DNA from: Eledone cirrhosa
Lineage: Eukaryota
Direction of reading: 5' to 3'
Length of the DNA stretch: 64,000 nucleotides
Assembly: GCA_964016885.1 (NCBI GenBank)
Contig: OZ024756.1
Span: 21,452,001 to 21,516,000, forward strand
Part shown: in pieces, positions 3,747 through 61,387 of the stretch
Numbering within the stretch: position 1 is the stretch's first letter
Layout: each line of letters opens with the position of its first letter
Program-made: the position numbers and the translations under genes
The notes under the pieces: model-generated
Database searches by the model: none
The model's input: the letters and a program-made list of their open reading frames with translations, nothing else
Told to the model about the DNA's origin: nothing

Positions 3747-3785
<39 letters not shown>

Positions 3786-4102
3786 TAAACACACACATAC
3801 AAGAGGATAATTATATATATATATTGACAAATATATGCACATAGGCATATATATATATGTTTATATGCATACATATATATATTTATATCCATACATACAT
3901 ATATATATTTATATGCATACATACATATATATATATTTGTATGCATGCATACATATATATATTTATATACATACATACATATATTTATATACATACAAAT
4001 ATATATATATATATACATTCATACAGATAAACACACACGCACACGCACACACACACGCGCACACGCACACGCACACGCACACGCACGCACACACACACAC
4101 AC

Positions 4103-4149
<47 letters not shown>

Positions 4150-4182
4150 CATATATATATTGACAAATATATGCACATAGGC

Positions 4183-4236
<54 letters not shown>

Positions 4237-4240
<4 letters not shown>

Positions 4241-4303
4241 GTCCAGCTAACCTCAGTCTCCTCTGTGTCACTTTTGAGCTGACTTTTGGGATGCTCCCAT
4301 ACA
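4237..4303 (-). mobile_element. Inverted continuation of the adjacent RTE-type LINE fragment
   Basis: Minus strand reads [21 protein letters not shown], the motif that normally follows RMLRMALNI.. in RTE-clade ORFs. Confidence 0.8.
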
Positions 4304-4320
4304 TCTTTTGGGATGCTCCC

Positions 4321-4620
4321 AAGCCGCTAGAATTGGTTGAGGGCTTCCTGTATTTGGGAGCAAAGATTGGGAATACGGAAGATGATGTGGTTGAGAGGAA
4401 GGGCAAAGCCTGGGCGGCGTGCCACAGCTGGAGATCGGTGTGGAAGTCTGACCTTCGTAAAGACCTGAAAATCCGCCTCTTCATTGCTGTAGTGGAGTCT
4501 GTGCTACTGTACGGGTCTGAAACTTGGACCCTGACCAAGAAACTCGCTCAGATGGTGGATGGGTGCTACACGAGAATGCTGAGGATGGCTCTGAACATTA
4601 ATCAGTATACACTGAGGATG
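4321..4620 (+). mobile_element. RTE-type non-LTR retrotransposon fragment (end of RT and downstream region)
   Basis: [11 protein letters not shown]...[33 protein letters not shown]...DGCYTRMLRMALNI; F.YLG and LLYGSETW are RTE/RTEX signatures. Confidence 0.9.
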
Positions 4621-4706
4621 TTATATATAACCAAAGATTAATAATACTACCAATACTGGAATTAAAACTTCAAGACAGTTGAGGTATGTCATACATCAAT
4701 TCATAT

Positions 4707-4770
4707 ATTTTATCTGATGAGGGCGTACTGAAAAAAACAGCACAGTACCTCCGAAATATATATAATAAAA
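4707..4770 (+). ncRNA. Type-I hammerhead ribozyme (family E)
   Basis: ttttat-CTGATGA(4714)-gggcgtactg...cagtacctcc-GAAA(4753)-tatata-TA-ataaaa; stems I and II pair, helix III is palindromic. Confidence 0.8.
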
Positions 4771-5094
4771 CATTTATGTTGATTATGTGAACGTATTCAT
4801 TTATTAATATTTTGATAATATATATATATATATATATAAATGTATTATGTTATATATATATTTTAGATGAGTGTATTATCTTATATATATATATATATAT
4901 GTGTGTGTATGTATTATGTTTATATATATATACACAGTTCAAGAGTAACCAATCTTAAAGAGAGAGATAGGAGAGGGGAGATTGGTGAATCAGTTAGAAG
5001 CCAAAGCGTAAAGGCATGTGCTCAATGTGCAATATGCAGTGGAAGGCAGCTAGGTGGCTGGGTTCATGCAGAGGTTAGGTGCACAGAGCTGGAA

Positions 5095-5859
<765 letters not shown>

Positions 5860-7516: not shown

Positions 7517-7828
7517 CAGGTTTTATAAAAGCGTATTCCGAATTTTCAATATTTCCGCCATTAGTAATGCCTCGTTTACTGAACACTGGCCGAGGTATGT
7601 TAAACCTCTTTTACAGATTCCATTATCTATGTTCTTGGGAAGATAGGGTATATAAAACATTGTATATACACATACTGAACATTGGCCGAGGCATGTTAAA
7701 ACTTCTTACATATATCATTAGTTATGTTATAGTGAAGATAGAGCAAACTAAATAGATTATATATGTGTATATATATGTATGTATATATATATATATAATG
7801 TATATATATATATATATAATGTATATAA

Positions 7829-7978
7829 GAGGGTGTGCTAAGATACCAGGTGGGCCATAACACACCAGAGTACTCTATATTTAGGGTAGAAGAGTGGATA
7901 GTAGGAAAAGAGTCAGGACCCCGACAGCCGAGCTCCGGCCGTTTCGACAGCTAGATCCGGTCCTGACTCTTTTCCTAT
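7829..7978 (-). mobile_element. TA-flanked short element, family C (3' half of a hammerhead-like motif), with a short fold-back
   Basis: taggaaaagagtcaggacc...ggtcctgactcttttccta; homologous to 8970-9110, 13037-13250, 28228-28420 and 29786-29990. Confidence 0.75.
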
Positions 7979-8239
7979 ACATACATATATATAATTGGAA
8001 ATTTAGTAAAATCGAATCTCTGGCAGTTTGCAAGCAAATTCGGCCTACTTATATGAAATGATGAGTTAGCAAAGCACTCGATAAGTTAGGTCCTAAGAGT
8101 AATAACATACGTTTAAATAGCTTGACATATCGAACATTGCAGTAGGCAAAATCTAACACACAATAATATACCAAAGTAACGATAGAACTAACGGGTTGAG
8201 AAAAGTAATATATATATATTATTAAATATATATTAAATA

Positions 8240-8271
<32 letters not shown>

Positions 8272-8663
8272 GCAGAAGATGAAGTGCTTATATGTGGTTG
8301 TTACGCTGTAACTTCGTGATGATAAGCCTGTTCGAGCGATCCAAAAGCACTTCATGTCAGTAGTTTATCCCAGTTAAAATTTGGTTATTAAGAGTAACGG
8401 AATATTCATTTATCAAATTAATAGTAGTTAAGACTGGGTTATTTAATCCTAATTGCTATATTGCAATAAAGCAATTATGTTGAAATAACTTCGTTTTAAC
8501 TACTATTAATTTGATATATATATATATATGTATATATGTATGAGGTGAGTTTTATTGTAGTACAATAAAGCAATGCAGATATCGGATAAGTAGCACTCTC
8601 AAGTTTGTAGGACTGGAGTATAAATAATATATAAGATCAAAAGATGGTCAAAAGAGTTCCATG

Positions 8664-8733
8664 TATTTTATTATGCGCATTTCAAAAACAAATATCATCG
8701 TGCAATAACATTTGCGTTTTCGTCAGATAAAAC
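8664..8733 (-). ncRNA. Type-I hammerhead ribozyme (family A, CUGACGA)
   Basis: Reverse complement: ttttat-CTGACGA-aaacgcaaatgttatt...gatatttgttttt-GAAA-tgcgca-TA-ataaaa. Confidence 0.8.
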
Positions 8734-8854
8734 AGGAAGACATGATATGAAGATTAAAAAACACTTGTGGATAGTGCAGTTTTAAATCAACATATATGTT
8801 GATTTAAAACTGCACTATTCACAAGTGTGTTTTAAGCTTCATATCATGTCTCCC

Positions 8855-8925
8855 TATTTTATCTGATGAAAACGCAAATGTTATTGCATGATGATATTTG
8901 TTTTTGAAATGCGCATAATAAAATA
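8855..8925 (+). ncRNA. Type-I hammerhead ribozyme (family A)
   Basis: tattttat-CTGATGA(8863)-stem II-GAAA(8906)-tgcgca-TA-ataaaata; perfect 8-bp stem I. Confidence 0.85.
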
Positions 8926-8969
8926 CATGGAACTCTTTTAACCATCTTTTGATCTTATATATATATATA

Positions 8970-9110
8970 TGAATCAGTCTGAAACTAGCTGTTGAAGCAA
9001 GAGCTCAGCCGTCGGTGTCCTGACTCATAACAATACTCTACTACCCCAAGTATCGAGTATTCTGGTGAGTAATGGTCTAACTAGTTTCTTACTGAATCCA
9101 TCTTTATATA
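8970..9110 (+). mobile_element. Family C short element, diverged
   Basis: gagctcagccgtcggtgtcctgac...ctctactaccccaagtatcgagta; TA-flanked. Confidence 0.7.
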
Positions 9111-9147
9111 TATATATATTTATATATATATGTATGTATGTGTGTGT

Positions 9148-9268
9148 ATCCCGGGTTCAATCGGGGGTAACCACAGTAATTAAGGTACTCAATACATAGC
9201 AGAGTATAAATATATAATATAGAAATGGCTTCTACAGGGCTAGAACTGTTTCATTCGGGGGAAATCAT
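9148..9268 (-). mobile_element. Family B short element, truncated inside the hammerhead core
   Basis: cccgggttcaatcgggggtaaccacagtaa...ggcttctacagggctagaactgtttcattcgggggaaatcat then TA; homologous to 11615-11825 and 57236-57430. Confidence 0.75.
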
Positions 9269-10782: not shown

Positions 10783-10821
<39 letters not shown>

Positions 10822-10852
10822 AGATCAAAAGATGGTTAAAGGAGTTCCATGT

Positions 10853-10921
10853 ATTTTATTATGCGCATTTCAAAAACAAACATCATCATGCAATAATATT
10901 TGTGTTTTCATCAGATAAAAC
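10853..10921 (-). ncRNA. Type-I hammerhead ribozyme (family A)
   Basis: Plus strand shows ttttatta-tgcgca-tttc...tcatcag(10908)-ataaaa. Confidence 0.85.
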
Positions 10922-11038
10922 AGGAGAACATGATATGAAGGCTAAAAAATACCTGTGGACAGTGCAGTTTTAAATCAACATATTTAAATCAACTGCACTG
11001 TCCACAGGTGTTTTTTAGCCTTCATATCATGTTCTCCT

Positions 11039-11107
11039 GTTTTATCTGATGAAAACACAAATATTATTGCATGATGATGTTTGTTTTTGAAATGCGCATA
11101 ATAAAAT
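11039..11107 (+). ncRNA. Type-I hammerhead ribozyme (family A)
   Basis: ttttat-CTGATGA(11046)-aaacacaaatattat...atgatgtttgttttt-GAAA(11089)-tgcgca-TA-ataaaa. Confidence 0.85.
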
Positions 11108-11234
11108 ACATGGAACTCCTTTAACCATCTTTTGATCTTATATTATGTATACTCCAGTCCTACAAACTGTAGAGTGCTTCTTATCCGATATCTGCATTGC
11201 TTTATTGTACTACAATAAAACTCACCTCCTACAT

Positions 11235-11614: not shown

Positions 11615-11825
11615 GAAGTTTATTCCGGGGTCAATCGGAGGTAACCACAGTAAGTAACGTACTCAAGACGTAGCAGAGTATAAATATTTAATATAGAAAT
11701 GTCTTCTACAGGACTAGAAGAGTTTCATTCGGGAGAAATCATCAGGACAGTCTACTTCCTGATGATTTCTCCTGAATGAAACAGTTCTAGTCCTGTAGAA
11801 GCCATTTCTATATTAAATATATACT
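11615..11825. mobile_element. Family B fold-back element in a TA tract
   Basis: atagaaatgtcttctacaggactagaa...aaatcatcagg vs cctgatgattt...ttctagtcctgtagaagccatttctat. Confidence 0.85.
11755..11801 (+). ncRNA. Type-I hammerhead ribozyme (family B)
   Basis: cttc-CTGATGA(11759)-t-ttc-tcct-gaa-t-GAAA(11778)-cag-ttctagtc-ctg-TA-gaag; GUA cleavage triplet. Confidence 0.75.
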
Positions 11826-11960
11826 CGTGATGGTGCTGAAACGTTCCTGGCTTTGGGTAAAAAAAATATACAACAGGATCAGTTAATTATGATTTTATTC
11901 AACATATTCCCCTCTTGGATTCACAATCTTGTTGCAGTTACCCTTCAATTATTCTGTAAT
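11824..11960 (+). mobile_element. Probable mariner/Tc1 left-end remnant
   Basis: ggtgctgaaacgttcctggctttg...gattttattcaacatattcccctc resembles mariner termini I recall from octopus; not verified. Confidence 0.5.
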
Positions 11961-13036: not shown

Positions 13037-13061
<25 letters not shown>

Positions 13062-13250
13062 AGATTCAGGACCCCGACGGCTGAGCTCTGGTCGTTTCGA
13101 CAGCTAGATCTGAAATAGCTGTCGAAACGGCCGGAGCTCAGCCGTCGGTGTCCTGAATCGTTTCATATTACCCACTCTACTACCACCAAGTATCGAGTAC
13201 TCTGGTGGGTTATGGTCCACCTGGTTTTTAACGACACCCTATCTGATGTA
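13037..13250. mobile_element. Family C fold-back element in a TA tract
   Basis: gattcaggaccccgacggctgagctc..gtttcgacagcta vs tagctgtcgaaacggccggagctcagccgtcggtgtcctgaatc. Confidence 0.85.
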
Positions 13251-28227: not shown

Positions 28228-28228
<1 letters not shown>

Positions 28229-28420
28229 GAAAAAGTATGACCCCGACGGCAGAGCTCAAGCCGTATCGACGGCTATTTCCGTCCAGAAATAGCCGTCGAA
28301 ACAGCTTGAGCTCTGACGTCGGGGGCATACTTTTTCCTATTTCCCACTCTACTACGCTAAGTATTGAGAACTCTGGTGCGTTATGGCCCATCTGGTTCCT
28401 TACCACAATTCCTTTGTTAT
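28228..28420. mobile_element. Family C fold-back element in a TA tract
   Basis: aaaagtatgaccccgacggcagagctcaagccg..cgacggctatttc vs gaaatagccgtcgaaacagcttgagctctgacgtcgggggcatactttt. Confidence 0.85.
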
Positions 28421-28431
28421 ATATATATATA

Positions 28432-28650
28432 TAATGTAGGAGGTGAGTTTTATTGTAGTACAATAAAGCAATGCAGATATCGGATATGTTGATTTAAAAC
28501 TGCACTATCCACAAGTGTTTTTTAGCCTTCATATCATGTTCTCCTGTTTTATCTGATGAAAACACAAATATTATTGCATGATGATGTTTGTTTTTGAAAT
28601 GCGCATAATAAAATACATGGAACTCCTTTAACCATCTTTTGATCTTATAT
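28432..28650. mobile_element. Family A element with inverted 3' tail and internal deletion
   Basis: 28432-28485 is the reverse complement of the family A tail (compare ~11185-11236); 28486-28650 is the forward hammerhead part. Confidence 0.88.
28546..28614 (+). ncRNA. Type-I hammerhead ribozyme (family A)
   Basis: ttttat-CTGATGA(28553)...GAAA(28596)-tgcgca-TA-ataaaa. Confidence 0.85.
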
Positions 28651-29785: not shown

Positions 29786-29989
29786 AACGAAGGAAATGTG
29801 GTAAGGAACCAGGTGGACCATAACGCACCAAAGTACTCAATACTTAGGGTAGTAGAGTGGGTAATAGGAACCAGTAAGACCCCGACGACTGAGCTCAAGC
29901 CGTTTCGACGGCTAATTCTGGACTAAATTTTAGTCCAGAATTAGCCGACGAAACGGCTTGAGCTCAGCCGTCGGGGTCTTACTGGTTCC

Positions 29990-31217: not shown

Positions 31218-32035
31218 ATTTGGTTCTGGCTCCTCTATACACTCTGATTTTATCTCTCTGATTGTAGCCAGAGAACTGCATACGGTGGATGAAGTGTTGT
31301 ATGTCTCTCTCTAGTTCTTCGGGGTTGCACATGCGGGACACGTTTCTCAGTATGTCGATTTTGGTATGGTCCGAAACAGCTGAGTTCCGGTGGATCAGAT
31401 ATTTGGAAGTCATGGGTTTGGCATAATGGTAATGGAGGATTTGTAATTTTGTTATTAATGGTATCTAACCAGAGCTCTGTGTCTAGTACAGGTAATCGAT
31501 GGTTGCGGTGTTTACTTGGGTAGTCTATAGTAACTCTCATACTCTGGTGGATGGAGTTAGCTATTTGCTGGATGCTTTCCATTGTGTTTTTCTCTAATTC
31601 CTGACTGTTCTCTAGTGGGGGTGTTTTAACTACGATGTTTAAATCATCAACGTAGCGGGAGTACATTATCAGGGTTAAGGGGTCTTCTAATTGTTCTTTA
31701 AGTTTAAGTTTACTGTCCCAGCATACCATGAATAAGTTAGCTATGTCGCCTGCAATGCTAACACCAATGGCTGCTCCTTCCTCTTGGGAATATGTTTTTC
31801 CATTAAATTTGAACATATGTTCCTTAAGGGTTAATTTTATGCTGGCCCCCACCGCATGTGCAATCATTTTCTTCAGTTCATCGTGGTTTTCAGGTGTCCG
31901 GATGGCTCTGGTCCACCCCTTCCATCTATCTGTCTGGGTTTTCTTGGCCATTGAGGTAATGGTAGGTGGTCTGCCTCTTGCTGGTCTTGTAGGGCACAGG
32001 TTGCTAAGGTCATATGTGTCTAGGTAATTATTACT
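31218..32035 (-). mobile_element. Penelope-like element reverse transcriptase fragment (Naiad-like), frameshifted and truncated at both ends
   Basis: CPTRPARGRPPTIT...HMFKFNGKTYSQEEGAAIG..IAGDIANLFM...YSRYVDD...DYPSKH..RLPVLD; after a frameshift near 31440, HYAKPMTSKYLIH.NSA..RMQFSGY (thumb). No GIY-YIG domain in the window; the clade call is from remembered motifs. Confidence 0.88.
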
Positions 32036-32059
32036 AAAGGTAATAATTACCTAGACATA

Positions 32060-34580
<2,521 letters not shown>

Positions 34581-40699: not shown

Positions 40700-41217
40700 T
40701 AATATATATATAATATATATATATATTTATATATATAAACAGAATACTGAGTGTATGTTTACGACTTCAAAACCCAATCTTGAGGATGTACATTGTATTT
40801 TCAAGTAATCTAATGCACATGTAAGGATATAATAGAGGCAGATAGAAATATTACTAGGCTTTAGTATTCCCTTTTATAAAATTTGAGCAATACAGAGAAG
40901 ATAAGCCTGGCCTCTGCTCAACATTTTTGCTTAAATCTGTGAATTGACAGCGTCGTTAGAATGTAGGATAGAATGATTTGTTGTATTCGTTTCGGATTTC
41001 TGCTCTCTGGCATCAAAACTAGCCAAGCTCAAATTTCACCCATTCGAGGTTGATAAAAAAAAGTCCCAGTTCAGTACTCGGTTCGATTCTTCCGCTATAG
41101 AAAAACTCGACTGTGTTAAAACCGGGAGAGGGTTGGGCTCCGCCAGGTTTAAAAGTGCCCTAAACACGCCATCTGACGGTGCCTCTACGACTCCACAAGT
41201 GGTTGTGCGACCTTTAT

Positions 41218-44706: not shown

Positions 44707-45545
44707 AATTGTTTCTACTTTTGGCACAAGGCCAGCAAAATACCCAGTACATTACTGGTACTTTATTTTATCGACCCCGTAAGGATGAAAGGCAAAGTTA
44801 ACCTCGGCGGGATTTGAACTCAGATCGTAAAGGGACATAACTCTTTGCGTCACTTTTGGCACAAGGCCAGCAAAATATCCAGTACATTACTGGTACTTTA
44901 TTTTATCGACCCCGTAAGGATGAAAGGCAAAGTTAACCTCGGCGGGATTTGAACTCAGATCGTAAAGGGACATAACTCTTTGCGTCACTTTTGGCACAAG
45001 GCCAGCAAAATATCCAGTACATTACTGGTACTTTATTTTATCGACCCCGTAAGGATGAAAGGCAAAGTTAACCTCGGCGGGATTTGAACTCAGATCGTAA
45101 AGGGACATAACTCTTTGCGTCAAAGCATGGCGTCCGACGCTCTACTGATACTGCCACTGTTTTAAGCACGAGGCCAACAATTTTGGGAGATGGGAAAGTA
45201 GATTAAATCGACTTCAGTACAGTAATGGTACTTTATTTTATCGACACCGTAATGATGAAAGGCAAAGCTAACCTAGACAGAATTTGAACTCAGATCATAA
45301 AGGGGCGTAACTATATGCCATAAAGCATGTTGTCGGAGGTTTTACCGATACTACCAAATGATTTCTAACATAGACACACATCCAGCAATTTTGGATGAAG
45401 CGGAAAGTCGTTTAAATTGACCGCTAAACTAGGCTGGTTGCTTATTTTATCGACCCTAGAAGGATGAAAGTTAAAGTTGACTTCAGTGGAGAAGAAAAGC
45501 TGCAAAGCATTTTGTCCGATGCTCTAACGATTCTTCCAATCCATT
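44707..45545 (-). mobile_element. Family 1 SINE with its 135-bp body triplicated, followed by two older copies
   Basis: cttttggcacaaggccagc at 44718, 44853, 44988. Confidence 0.9.
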
Positions 45546-49593: not shown

Positions 49594-53275
<3,682 letters not shown>

Positions 53276-54547: not shown

Positions 54548-54685
54548 TCATCGGGTGGTCTCAGCCGAAATGGACTCAACGATTGATCTCCACGTGGGTC
54601 TGTCGTTCATTGTCATTGCCAAGTCCTGGATTTCAATACCAGACTCTCCGGAGATGACATCAGGGTAGGAGAGCTTATTAGTGAC
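54548..54685 (-). mobile_element. 3'-terminal fragment of an RTE-type LINE
   Basis: LSYPDVISGESGIEIQDLAMTMNDRPTWRSIV...stop; M.DR..WR is the RTE C-terminal motif. Confidence 0.75.
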
Positions 54686-56234: not shown

Positions 56235-56686
56235 GGCGGTGGATTGGCAGTATCGGTAGAGGGTCGGATGTCATGCTTTGGCGCATAGAGTTACGGCCCT
56301 TGCGGTGGATTGGCAGTATTGGTAGAGTGTCGGATGCCATGCTTTGGCGCATAGAGTTACGGCCCTTGCGGTGGATTGGCAGTATTGGTAGAGTGTCGGA
56401 TGCCATGCTTTGGCGCATAGAGTTACGGCCCTTGCGGTGGATTGGCAGTATTGGTAGTGTCGGATGCCATGCTTTGGCGCATAGAGTTACGGCCCTTGCG
56501 GTGGATTGGCAGTATTGGTAGAGTGTCGGATGCCATGCTTTGGCGCATAGAGTTACGGCCCTTGCCATTCTGAGTTCAAATCCCGCCGAGGTTAACTTTG
56601 CCTTTCATCCTTACGGGGTCGATAAAATAAAGTACCAGTAATACACTGGGTATTTTGCTGGCCTTGTGCCTAAAGTAGAAACAATT
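56235..56686 (+). mobile_element. Family 1 SINE with a five-fold 66-bp head repeat and ~19-bp TSD
   Basis: gcggtggattggcagta repeated with period 66; attatttattttata(g/a)ata at 56216-56234 and 56684-56702. Confidence 0.92.
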
Positions 56687-57235: not shown

Positions 57236-57246
<11 letters not shown>

Positions 57247-57430
57247 AAAGGCTTCTACAGGACTAGAACTGTTTGATTCGGGAGAAATCATCAGAAAGCC
57301 TGATGATTTCTCCAGAATGAAACAGTTCTAGCCCTGTAGAAGCCTTTTCTATATTAAATATTTATGCTCCGTTTTATATTGAGTACTTTACTTACTGTGG
57401 TTACCCCCGATTGAACCCGGGATAAACTTA
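57236..57430. mobile_element. Family B fold-back with two hammerhead cores back to back
   Basis: ...aaatcatcag-aaagc-ctgatgattt...; plus core intact (57300) but lacks the 5' strand of stem I; minus core has stem I (ggcttt/gaagcc) but GAAA is CAAA. Confidence 0.85.
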
Positions 57431-60631: not shown

Positions 60632-60668
<37 letters not shown>

Positions 60669-61387
60669 TGGCTGCCAACTCGTTTTCGAGTACGGCCACT
60701 ACTTTATATCCATGTAGGAGAACCCCTACGGATGCGCTGAACGAGTGTGACTTTTTAGTCCAGCCAGCGACTTGAAAACTCTGGTACAAACACTACACTT
60801 GTGACAATTATTGACACATAGTGCTGGGCCCATGGTACCATGTGACGACAAGTGAAGAGAGATCTCCAGATATAAAGCAATGCCTGTGCCGTGAAGCTTT
60901 TATAGTGAGCAAAGGCACTGCACAAAGCCAGTCCCACTCTCTTAACCAAGATGATATTTACCAAAAAGAAGAACAAGTCAACATCATTGGATACCATCAG
61001 AGTTGCAGGTGTTATATCAGAGTTTGCCTTCTCCTAGAATTCTGCCTTGACAAAGGCTAAGGGGTCATCTCTCCCAGTGATTTTGGATGGCCATTGACTC
61101 TTAAGAGCTCCTTTGCCCTTTGATATATATACATACATACATACATACATACATACATGCATACATGTATATATATATATATTGCCATTCATATACATAC
61201 ATGTATGTGTATGTATATATATGTTGGTAAGTATGTGTGTGTATATATATATGTTGGTAAGTATGTGTGTCAGTGTGTAAATACATTTATATATGTATGA
61301 ATATTTATATATATATATAAATGTATTTACACACAGACACATACTTACCTACATATAGATATATATGTATATTCACACACACACACA

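Follow-up and report, generated by a model that had tools for sequence, protein, structure and literature searches.

Layout of the locus

Within the window (the whole stretch of 64,000 nucleotides that was analysed, numbered from its first letter), a TA repeat carries a 380-base piece from the middle of an RTE-like LINE, which is inverted head to head. The features on which the analysis is based are the following:

3748..4237, no strand: left flank, a compound TA/CA microsatellite of about 490 nt that ends in (TA)25-CA
4238..4303, minus strand: segment B, 66 nt of the RTE-like ORF, with 0 differences to contig 17 of sequencing run X4 and contig 19 of run X6
4283..4299, minus strand: template of the filler inside segment B, including a 5-bp hairpin
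4304..4321, plus strand: filler at the junction, made up of 1 nt and a 17-bp re-copy of 4283-4299
4321..4620, plus strand: segment A, 300 nt of the RTE-like ORF, an open frame covering the end of the RT and the thumb region
4621..4629, no strand: right flank, T(TA)4
4630..4817, plus strand: a further, distinct insert with a hammerhead, from a high-copy family (core 4714-4720, stem II 4721-4752, GAAA 4753, predicted cleavage after 4764)
31221-32061, minus strand: ORF fragment of a Penelope-like element (PLE) with RT and thumb and one frameshift, between TA-type arrays; the ORF piece itself spans 31221-32046

The plus frame of segment A ends in ...MALNINQYTLRM at 4620, and the minus frame of segment B reads through 21 residues before it enters the TA run. 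The direct repeat of 17 bp (4283-4299 and 4305-4321) is exact, allows no extension on either side and is expected about 7e-7 times by chance; the last nucleotide of the filler is at the same time the first nucleotide of segment A (4321). All features that the first-pass annotation had described at 4237..4620 (plus frame, minus frame and 17-bp repeat) are present and the inversion itself stands, but the inverted part, which had been started at 4237, occupies 4238-4303, and comparison with the contigs gave loose ends of segment B at both of these positions. The inverted LINE piece is genuine, and its structure is well resolved. At 7 of 366 positions it departs from essentially all contigs of its family, and the M before YG stands where the family usually has an L.

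Source family of the fragment

For the family sequence, contigs from 4 of the 23 sequencing runs listed were compared, with X1 and X2 representing one sample. On single contigs of one family (X4 contig 17 and X6 contig 19), segments A and B are collinear and separated by 13 nt, and the closest proteins have a gap of 4 residues between A and B, which matches the 13 missing nt. Among the closest proteins with an alignment reaching the end of A, segment B begins 5 residues after A in P0001, P0002, P0005, P0008, P0014 and P0034, and 6 residues after it in P0007. Segment B had been proposed to be the direct continuation of segment A; their origin from the same RNA is upheld, direct contiguity is not, as 13 nt are missing between them. 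The proposed alignment to the family thus returned collinearity and a gap size of 13 nt, and the suspicion that the two segments come from different LINE families is answered by their presence on single contigs of one family. The 4303/4620 joint was found on 4 contigs of X1 and 6 of X2, and was replaced by a 4306/4620 joint in 2 contigs of X2; the latter suggests a family variant from which the gap would be 10 nt, with 2 nt of microhomology between segment B and the filler.

The protein encoded by segment A had 290 relatives among 339 candidates, and 110 of the 120 listed A-related proteins also matched segment B. The identities of A and B to the same 110 proteins were weakly correlated (Spearman 0.18, p 0.055), and the same-family origin is therefore based on the collinear contigs. 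The best relatives are single-ORF endonuclease-RT proteins: P0001 (79% identical to segment A) and P0005 (70%) contain the Pfam domains RVT_1 and Exo_endo_phos, the latter barely above the cut-off in P0005. The one close named relative, P0009, is from Octopus vulgaris (78% identity), for which reason the genome is termed octopus-like, and a DUF6451 match was below the cut-off. By this architecture the fragment is provisionally assigned to the RTE clade, with RTEX or a sister clade as possible alternatives. Related loci in metagenomes were 36-69% identical and came from other organisms, the search of genome contigs returned 1 weak and irrelevant match, and no related loci were found in viral contigs.

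In organism A the family is present in great abundance, with 4983 matching contigs in X1. It was also seen at about 90-100% identity on low-depth contigs (depth 3-9) in the X4 and X6 organisms, for which horizontal transfer, close kinship and trace DNA cannot be told apart. On X2, a go-back joint from 4591 to 4484 reached a depth of 584 and possibly marks an amplified, internally duplicated derivative of the family.

The missing 3' end

Among the proteins that could be parsed (34 of 120), the ORF continues for a median of 70 residues past the AGH motif, and the RNA end of segment B lies about 70 codons upstream of the stop codon. Because the ORF runs about 70 codons past segment B, the 3' terminus of this LINE is missing from the insert, the direct segment of which likewise does not end in the natural 3' tail of the element. 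A search of the window for the missing part with a 13-nt motif matched only two unrelated repeat arrays, and tblastn across the window returned only a faint and older RTE-like C-terminal piece (54572-54676, minus strand, E 0.002). The absence of the 3' end reported by the first-pass annotation is hereby borne out, as is the conclusion drawn from it, since a piece without a 3' end cannot be explained by ordinary 3'-end priming. The missing part might, as that annotation had allowed, lie beyond the TA tract in an orthologue; in the rest of the window it was not found.

Among the 80 related loci from metagenomes, 66 extend to the ORF end, 12 run out at the edge of their contig and the other 2, which are near-identical, are truncated, so that 3' truncation amounts to 2 of 68 loci. 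Most of the 66 loci carry a short tandem-repeat tail directly after the stop codon, as judged by eye and from relatives in other organisms rather than from the fragment's own family. A TA run stands where the ORF ends in 3 of the 66, two of them the same insertion. The features of non-classical LINE insertions, namely 3' truncation, lack of a tail and extra nucleotides, are present in the insert.

The inversion joint and how it may have formed

Read on the minus strand, the insert consists of flank, inverted segment A, segment B and flank, which is the product of an inversion with a deletion. We consider this, with a probability of roughly 0.68, the outcome of a single event in which a double-strand cut in the compound TA microsatellite was followed by twin priming on an RNA template; this value and the grades given in words to all other readings are the author's judgements and not computed values. 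Reverse transcription of one RTE-like RNA would have been primed by both DNA ends, at internal sites that lie 79 nt from each other, probably by pairing of a CAT 3' end of each DNA end with AUG in the RNA. The first-primed cDNA would have run for 66 nt (segment B) and the second-primed cDNA for 300 nt (segment A), with the 13 nt between them lost, and a 17-nt stretch of segment B would have been re-copied as filler before the cDNA ends were joined head to head. The RNA template, the microhomology priming and the single event are what we infer here; what is observed is the arrangement of the segments, their collinearity and the gap between them, the lack of the 3' end and the source of the filler, which re-copies the last part of cDNA B and ends at the 5-bp hairpin.

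At both ends the RNA breakpoint falls right after ATG, which is consistent with a microhomology of 3 nt to the compound TA repeat. Such a trimer is expected at 2.5% per position and any identical trimer at both ends at about 2%, a figure to be read as post hoc, and a nearby ATG occurs at 24-41% of the edges of TA runs. The natural sequence beyond the two outer ends of the piece is not TA-like. Against a single twin-priming event it has to be weighed that the target duplication, the microhomology and the single-event origin are putative, and that no contig among the listed joints in the four runs bridges the joint of this copy. A missing spanning contig proves nothing, since Logan contigs break at repeat joints. 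An assembly or read artefact, which might be suspected of an insert between long TA arrays whose joint is spanned by none of the listed contigs, is hardly credible and the least probable of the readings considered, a deletion of 13 nt, a filler of 17 bp and private substitutions together being unlike a fold-back read chimera.

In X1 and X2, at least eight other joints of the B region to the A region are listed on the same window strand:

4257/4566, 4262/4487, 4274/4572 and 4285/4484
4291/4420, 4302/4496, 4257/4472 and 4277/4424

Given the natural order of the two regions, joints on the same window strand require a head-to-head inversion. Two of these eight occur in both X1 and X2, one of them with an 11-nt filler resembling the same hairpin region. 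The short sides measure 20-27 nt where given, and joints this short are flagged as doubtful; they are probable recurrent 5' inversions, the outer ends of which are unseen.

These joints also bear on an unlikely history, in which ordinary RTE twin priming started at the natural 3' tail in a TA run and the 3' 220 or more nt were lost later, by deletion when a break in the TA array, which is fragile, was mended with the help of microhomology. In its favour are the probable head-to-head joints with different breakpoints in the same family and the proposal that RTE-clade endonucleases cut at TA (PMC13295347). Two of the other joints stop matching exactly at 4238, as if segment B continued naturally, and the ATG at its end fits deletion microhomology as well as priming. 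This history requires two events, and neither the 3' part nor a remnant of a tail was found in the window. Relatives, albeit from other organisms, rarely end at TA runs (3/66) and are rarely truncated at the 3' end (2/68).

Filler taken from nearby sequence with microhomologies of 1-3 nt is typical of polymerase-theta end joining. It is conceivable, though improbable, that no RNA was involved and that a polymerase mended a TA break by switching its template to an RTE copy in the genome; the source family is highly abundant in organism A (4983 X1 contigs). A DNA-level repair must however invert two adjacent pieces head to head so that the two outer ends both come from the 3' side of the sense strand, a polarity that twin priming yields directly, and the same layout recurs in hammerhead RNA inserts. 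A literature search found no paper combining templated insertion, twin priming and polymerase theta.

The adjoining hammerhead insert and other TA-flanked inserts

A hammerhead insert had been reported to follow the RTE piece directly; it is there, with a real core by inspection, and 9 nt of TA lie between the two. The core at 4714, the GAAA and the pairing of stem I are recognisable by inspection, Rfam gave no hammerhead match at 4622-4820, and the minimum-energy fold does not adopt the ribozyme (z -0.65). The insert is probably derived from a PLE and probably carries an internal deletion, and 4630-4660 may be an inverted tail; a contig of X6 has 62 extra letters at 4643. It differs privately at 3 of about 130 positions, and as this divergence is close to that of the RTE piece (7/366) the two are of similar modest age.

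With 9 nt between them, segment A and the ribozyme on the same strand and similar private divergence, the two pieces could be taken for one composite mobile unit or for a co-insertion by template switching, which we judge highly improbable. The summed depth is about 100 at 4626-4645 versus at least 1e5 on either side, and this trough between the pieces means that they are not an amplified unit. Among the listed contigs of X1 and X2 none bridges the RTE piece and the hammerhead, the hammerhead end 4622-4643 has a different flank in X6, and inserts also stack in TA runs elsewhere (8271-9266). A multi-copy RTE-hammerhead unit is therefore unlikely, whereas a one-off co-insertion is compatible with twin priming.

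Three TA-flanked families of short inserts were observed in the window, most of them with inverted 5' arms and with a family-specific end spacing of 57-104 nt (8530-8955, 10817-11234 and 28434-28650; 7819-7984, 8971-9104, 13058-13248, 28228-28417 and 29787-29989; 9132-9266, 11615-11826 and 57240-57428). The spacing of the primed ends on the RNA was 104, 91, 91, 76, 84, 80, 80, 57 and 74 nt in these three families, the 57-nt case having a short arm that is not TA-joined, and 143, 166 and 788 nt in three others. Inverted arms are also seen in the TA-flanked inserts 4933-5653 (spacing 166 nt, with a SINE 3' end inside) and 8271-8513 (143 nt). At 79 nt the RTE insert falls within the range of 57-104 nt shown by 9 of the 12 inverted inserts with TA flanks, from 3 of 6 families. 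The claim that its inverted architecture is shared by other inserts is supported by the hammerhead-family insert 28434-28650, which has the same inversion-deletion layout with 38 nt lost, and the insert 10817-11234 has an 11-nt re-copy at its joint. Fold-back duplications rather than deletions make up 8 of the 9 inverted hammerhead-type inserts examined, and the RNA junction at the second-primed ends of hammerhead inserts is mostly TA-like.

The PLE ORF fragment at 31221-32061 has no 3' end of its own and shows a fold-back of about 22 nt at 32013-32061. In its best relatives the RT is followed by a C-terminal GIY-YIG-like region, seen by eye in P0121, P0123 and P0141; a Pfam match to such a region was obtained in P0129 only and was below the cut-off. 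Matches on both strands in L067 were considered as a self-inversion and rejected. At 60668-60830 (minus strand), the end of a C2H2-finger frame (Pfam E 6e-5, below the cut-off) is followed by a stop, a hairpin UTR of about 60 nt and (TA)15; this resembles the 3' end of a second, TA-ending LINE-like family, for which a homologue was searched and none found.

The TA target

The window is animal DNA with many simple repeats; it holds 188 tandem-repeat rows, and TA runs of at least 6 nt make up 14% of its bases. The chance of TA on both sides of the insert is 7-15%, and none of 44 SINE matches has TA on both sides, a weak control for a SINE of no assigned mobiliser or age whose copies concentrate where the window is poor in TA. 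A place in a TA run, as the RTE piece has it, would thus be less frequent by chance or among SINE insertions, in agreement with the first-pass annotation. Against the twin-priming reading, TA on both sides counts as one event and not two, and 14% of the window lies in TA runs. Hammerhead cores lie in inter-TA segments of up to 450 nt in 14 of 16 cases, compared with 1 of 31 SINE positions set by hand and 26% at random; the 16 cores were kept from 18 pattern matches, with 2849 and 43952 dropped as chance.

The SINE-like repeat itself is about 190 nt long, with about 30 copies between 12108 and 58369 that cluster in TA-poor stretches and often stand in tandem partial arrays (44717-45122, 56236-56565). 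Two compound TA/TATG arrays are giant, with 2.5 kb (32057-34577, immediately after the PLE fragment) and 3.4 kb (49794-53247), and have a near-total G-over-C skew on the plus strand. The Rfam scan of the whole window gave mostly microRNA matches on TA repeats among the 150 of its 448 rows that were listed. A degenerate U6-like match at 40856-40958 (plus strand) scored 39.8 bits, under the gathering score of 44, and is not TA-flanked.

Which enzyme made the insert

Given a twin-priming event, two sources of the enzyme are put forward tentatively and with the same weight: a PLE RT/endonuclease acting in trans, as the first-pass annotation had proposed next to RNA-templated break repair, and the ORF protein of the RTE itself, at work in the repair of a TA break that was perhaps cut by a PLE endonuclease. 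Another LINE ending on TA as the enzyme source is very unlikely. The TA on both sides (chance 7-15%; SINE 0/44) and the 79-nt spacing, like that of 9 of the 12 inverted TA-flanked inserts, speak for a PLE. Against it, the spacing is matched in 3 of 6 families and the others have 143, 166 and 788 nt; no pLTR frames the RTE piece; the RTE RNA encodes its own RT; and the RTE family has at least eight other probable inversion joints, although these may stem from the same PLE process. The RTE RNA is not TA-like beyond either end, unlike most second-primed ends of hammerhead inserts, and 8 of 9 inverted hammerhead-type inserts are fold-back duplications. The PAc protein of a PLE required part of its own RNA, namely the first 172 nt of its own ORF (PMC11167929), and RTE endonucleases have themselves been proposed to cut at TA (PMC6007223, PMC13295347). 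The 3' end of the second LINE-like family abuts (TA)15, and TA junctions may therefore not be exclusive to PLEs. On the other side, RTE is classed among the stringent LINEs in PMC4476161, and an internal first start by its own protein is thus less expected.

Since the RTE RNA encodes an RT, no pLTR is present and twin-primed 3'-truncated LINEs are known, capture in trans by a PLE RT is a candidate reading rather than a demonstrated one; a single copy cannot prove that the enzyme of a different element did the copying. The wider proposal, that TA-targeting PLE machinery reverse-transcribes foreign RNAs without pLTR or hammerhead from internal sites about 60-100 nt apart and leaves short inverted 3'-truncated retrocopies in TA repeats, is a little more doubtful still. 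Its extension to host mRNAs found no backing, in that no captured coding RNA was recognised: 66 of 91 open frames in TA-bounded segments and 1 outside (the 91 excluding repeat-like frames and those of the RTE itself) gave no Pfam match above the cut-off.

If PLE enzymes made the insert, their selectivity for RNA would be far looser than the pLTR requirement suggests; and should the other inversion joints of the family come from the same process, PLEs would serve cephalopod-like genomes as retro-copying engines of a general kind. A countable signature would then consist of inversion with TA on both sides, lack of a 3' end and a spacing of about 80 nt, with which the building of inverted ends by PLEs could be tested genome-wide.

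Comparison with known systems

The insert works like a twin-primed, internally primed retrocopy with the known features of non-classical LINE insertions, and is as such one decayed insertion of a kind already described in humans; what goes beyond the human precedent is the probable recurrence of 5' inversions in an invertebrate RTE-like family. Sen 2007 described 21 3'-truncated human L1 insertions (NCLI), 15 of which have extra nucleotides, and one of them, NCLI38, is a simple twin-primed inversion (PMC1920257). Like NCLI38, the present insert is a 3'-truncated LINE piece without a tail, with extra nucleotides and with an inversion via twin priming. Unlike the NCLI, it is RTE-like and not L1, comes from an invertebrate, lies inside a TA microsatellite and is known from the filled site alone. 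It shares head-to-head segments, a small deletion and putative short microhomologies with twin-primed 5'-inverted L1 copies (Meyer 2010, PMC2837659; Kojima 2010, PMC2912911), from which it differs in a first primer off the 3' tail and in having no recognisable target-site duplication. A literature search found no report of twin priming in RTE elements, and nothing decisive came from PMC9977147, PMC5389967 and PMC13174262.

On AT-rich DNA, the PLE protein studied by Frangieh 2024 cleaves and extends both strands, with starts at two internal RNA sites without homology (PMC11167929). A TA- or AT-rich target, an inverted 5' part, the extension of both strands and two internal RNA starts would, on the twin-priming reading, likewise be common to PLE insertions (PMC8557442, PMC11167929) and the present one, whereas its cargo is not PLE RNA. 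Its spacing of 79 nt contrasts with published PLE tails of 30-40 nt, which the 57-104 nt end spacing of the TA-flanked families in the window also exceeds, and PLE inserts are mostly fold-back duplications, in contrast to the inversion-deletion of the RTE piece. Craig 2021 reported a (TA)n bias for Naiad, hypothesized that the linker mediates such a bias in Neptune elements and considered the mechanism by which the PLE cycle builds inverted ends as still undefined (PMC8557442). In Adineta vaga, where host genes are the cargo of PLE trans-mobilisation, this cargo is framed by pLTRs, which were called required cis-elements (Arkhipova 2013, PMC3846280). The possible movement of non-PLE sequence by PLE enzymes is common to both cases, but no pLTR frames the present piece, which has a microsatellite on the left and the hammerhead on one side beyond 9 nt of TA.

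A structure of this kind is not described in the available parts of the cephalopod PLE and RTE literature searched (PMC8557442, PMC9115989). RTE-2_OV of Octopus vulgaris encodes 1109 aa with a C2H2 finger (Petrosino 2022, PMC9115989). As compared by its description, it resembles the source family in belonging to the RTE clade, in its single ORF for endonuclease and RT, and in a microsatellite right after the ORF, and differs from it in that the closest relatives found here have about 1040 aa and no C2H2 finger in Pfam.
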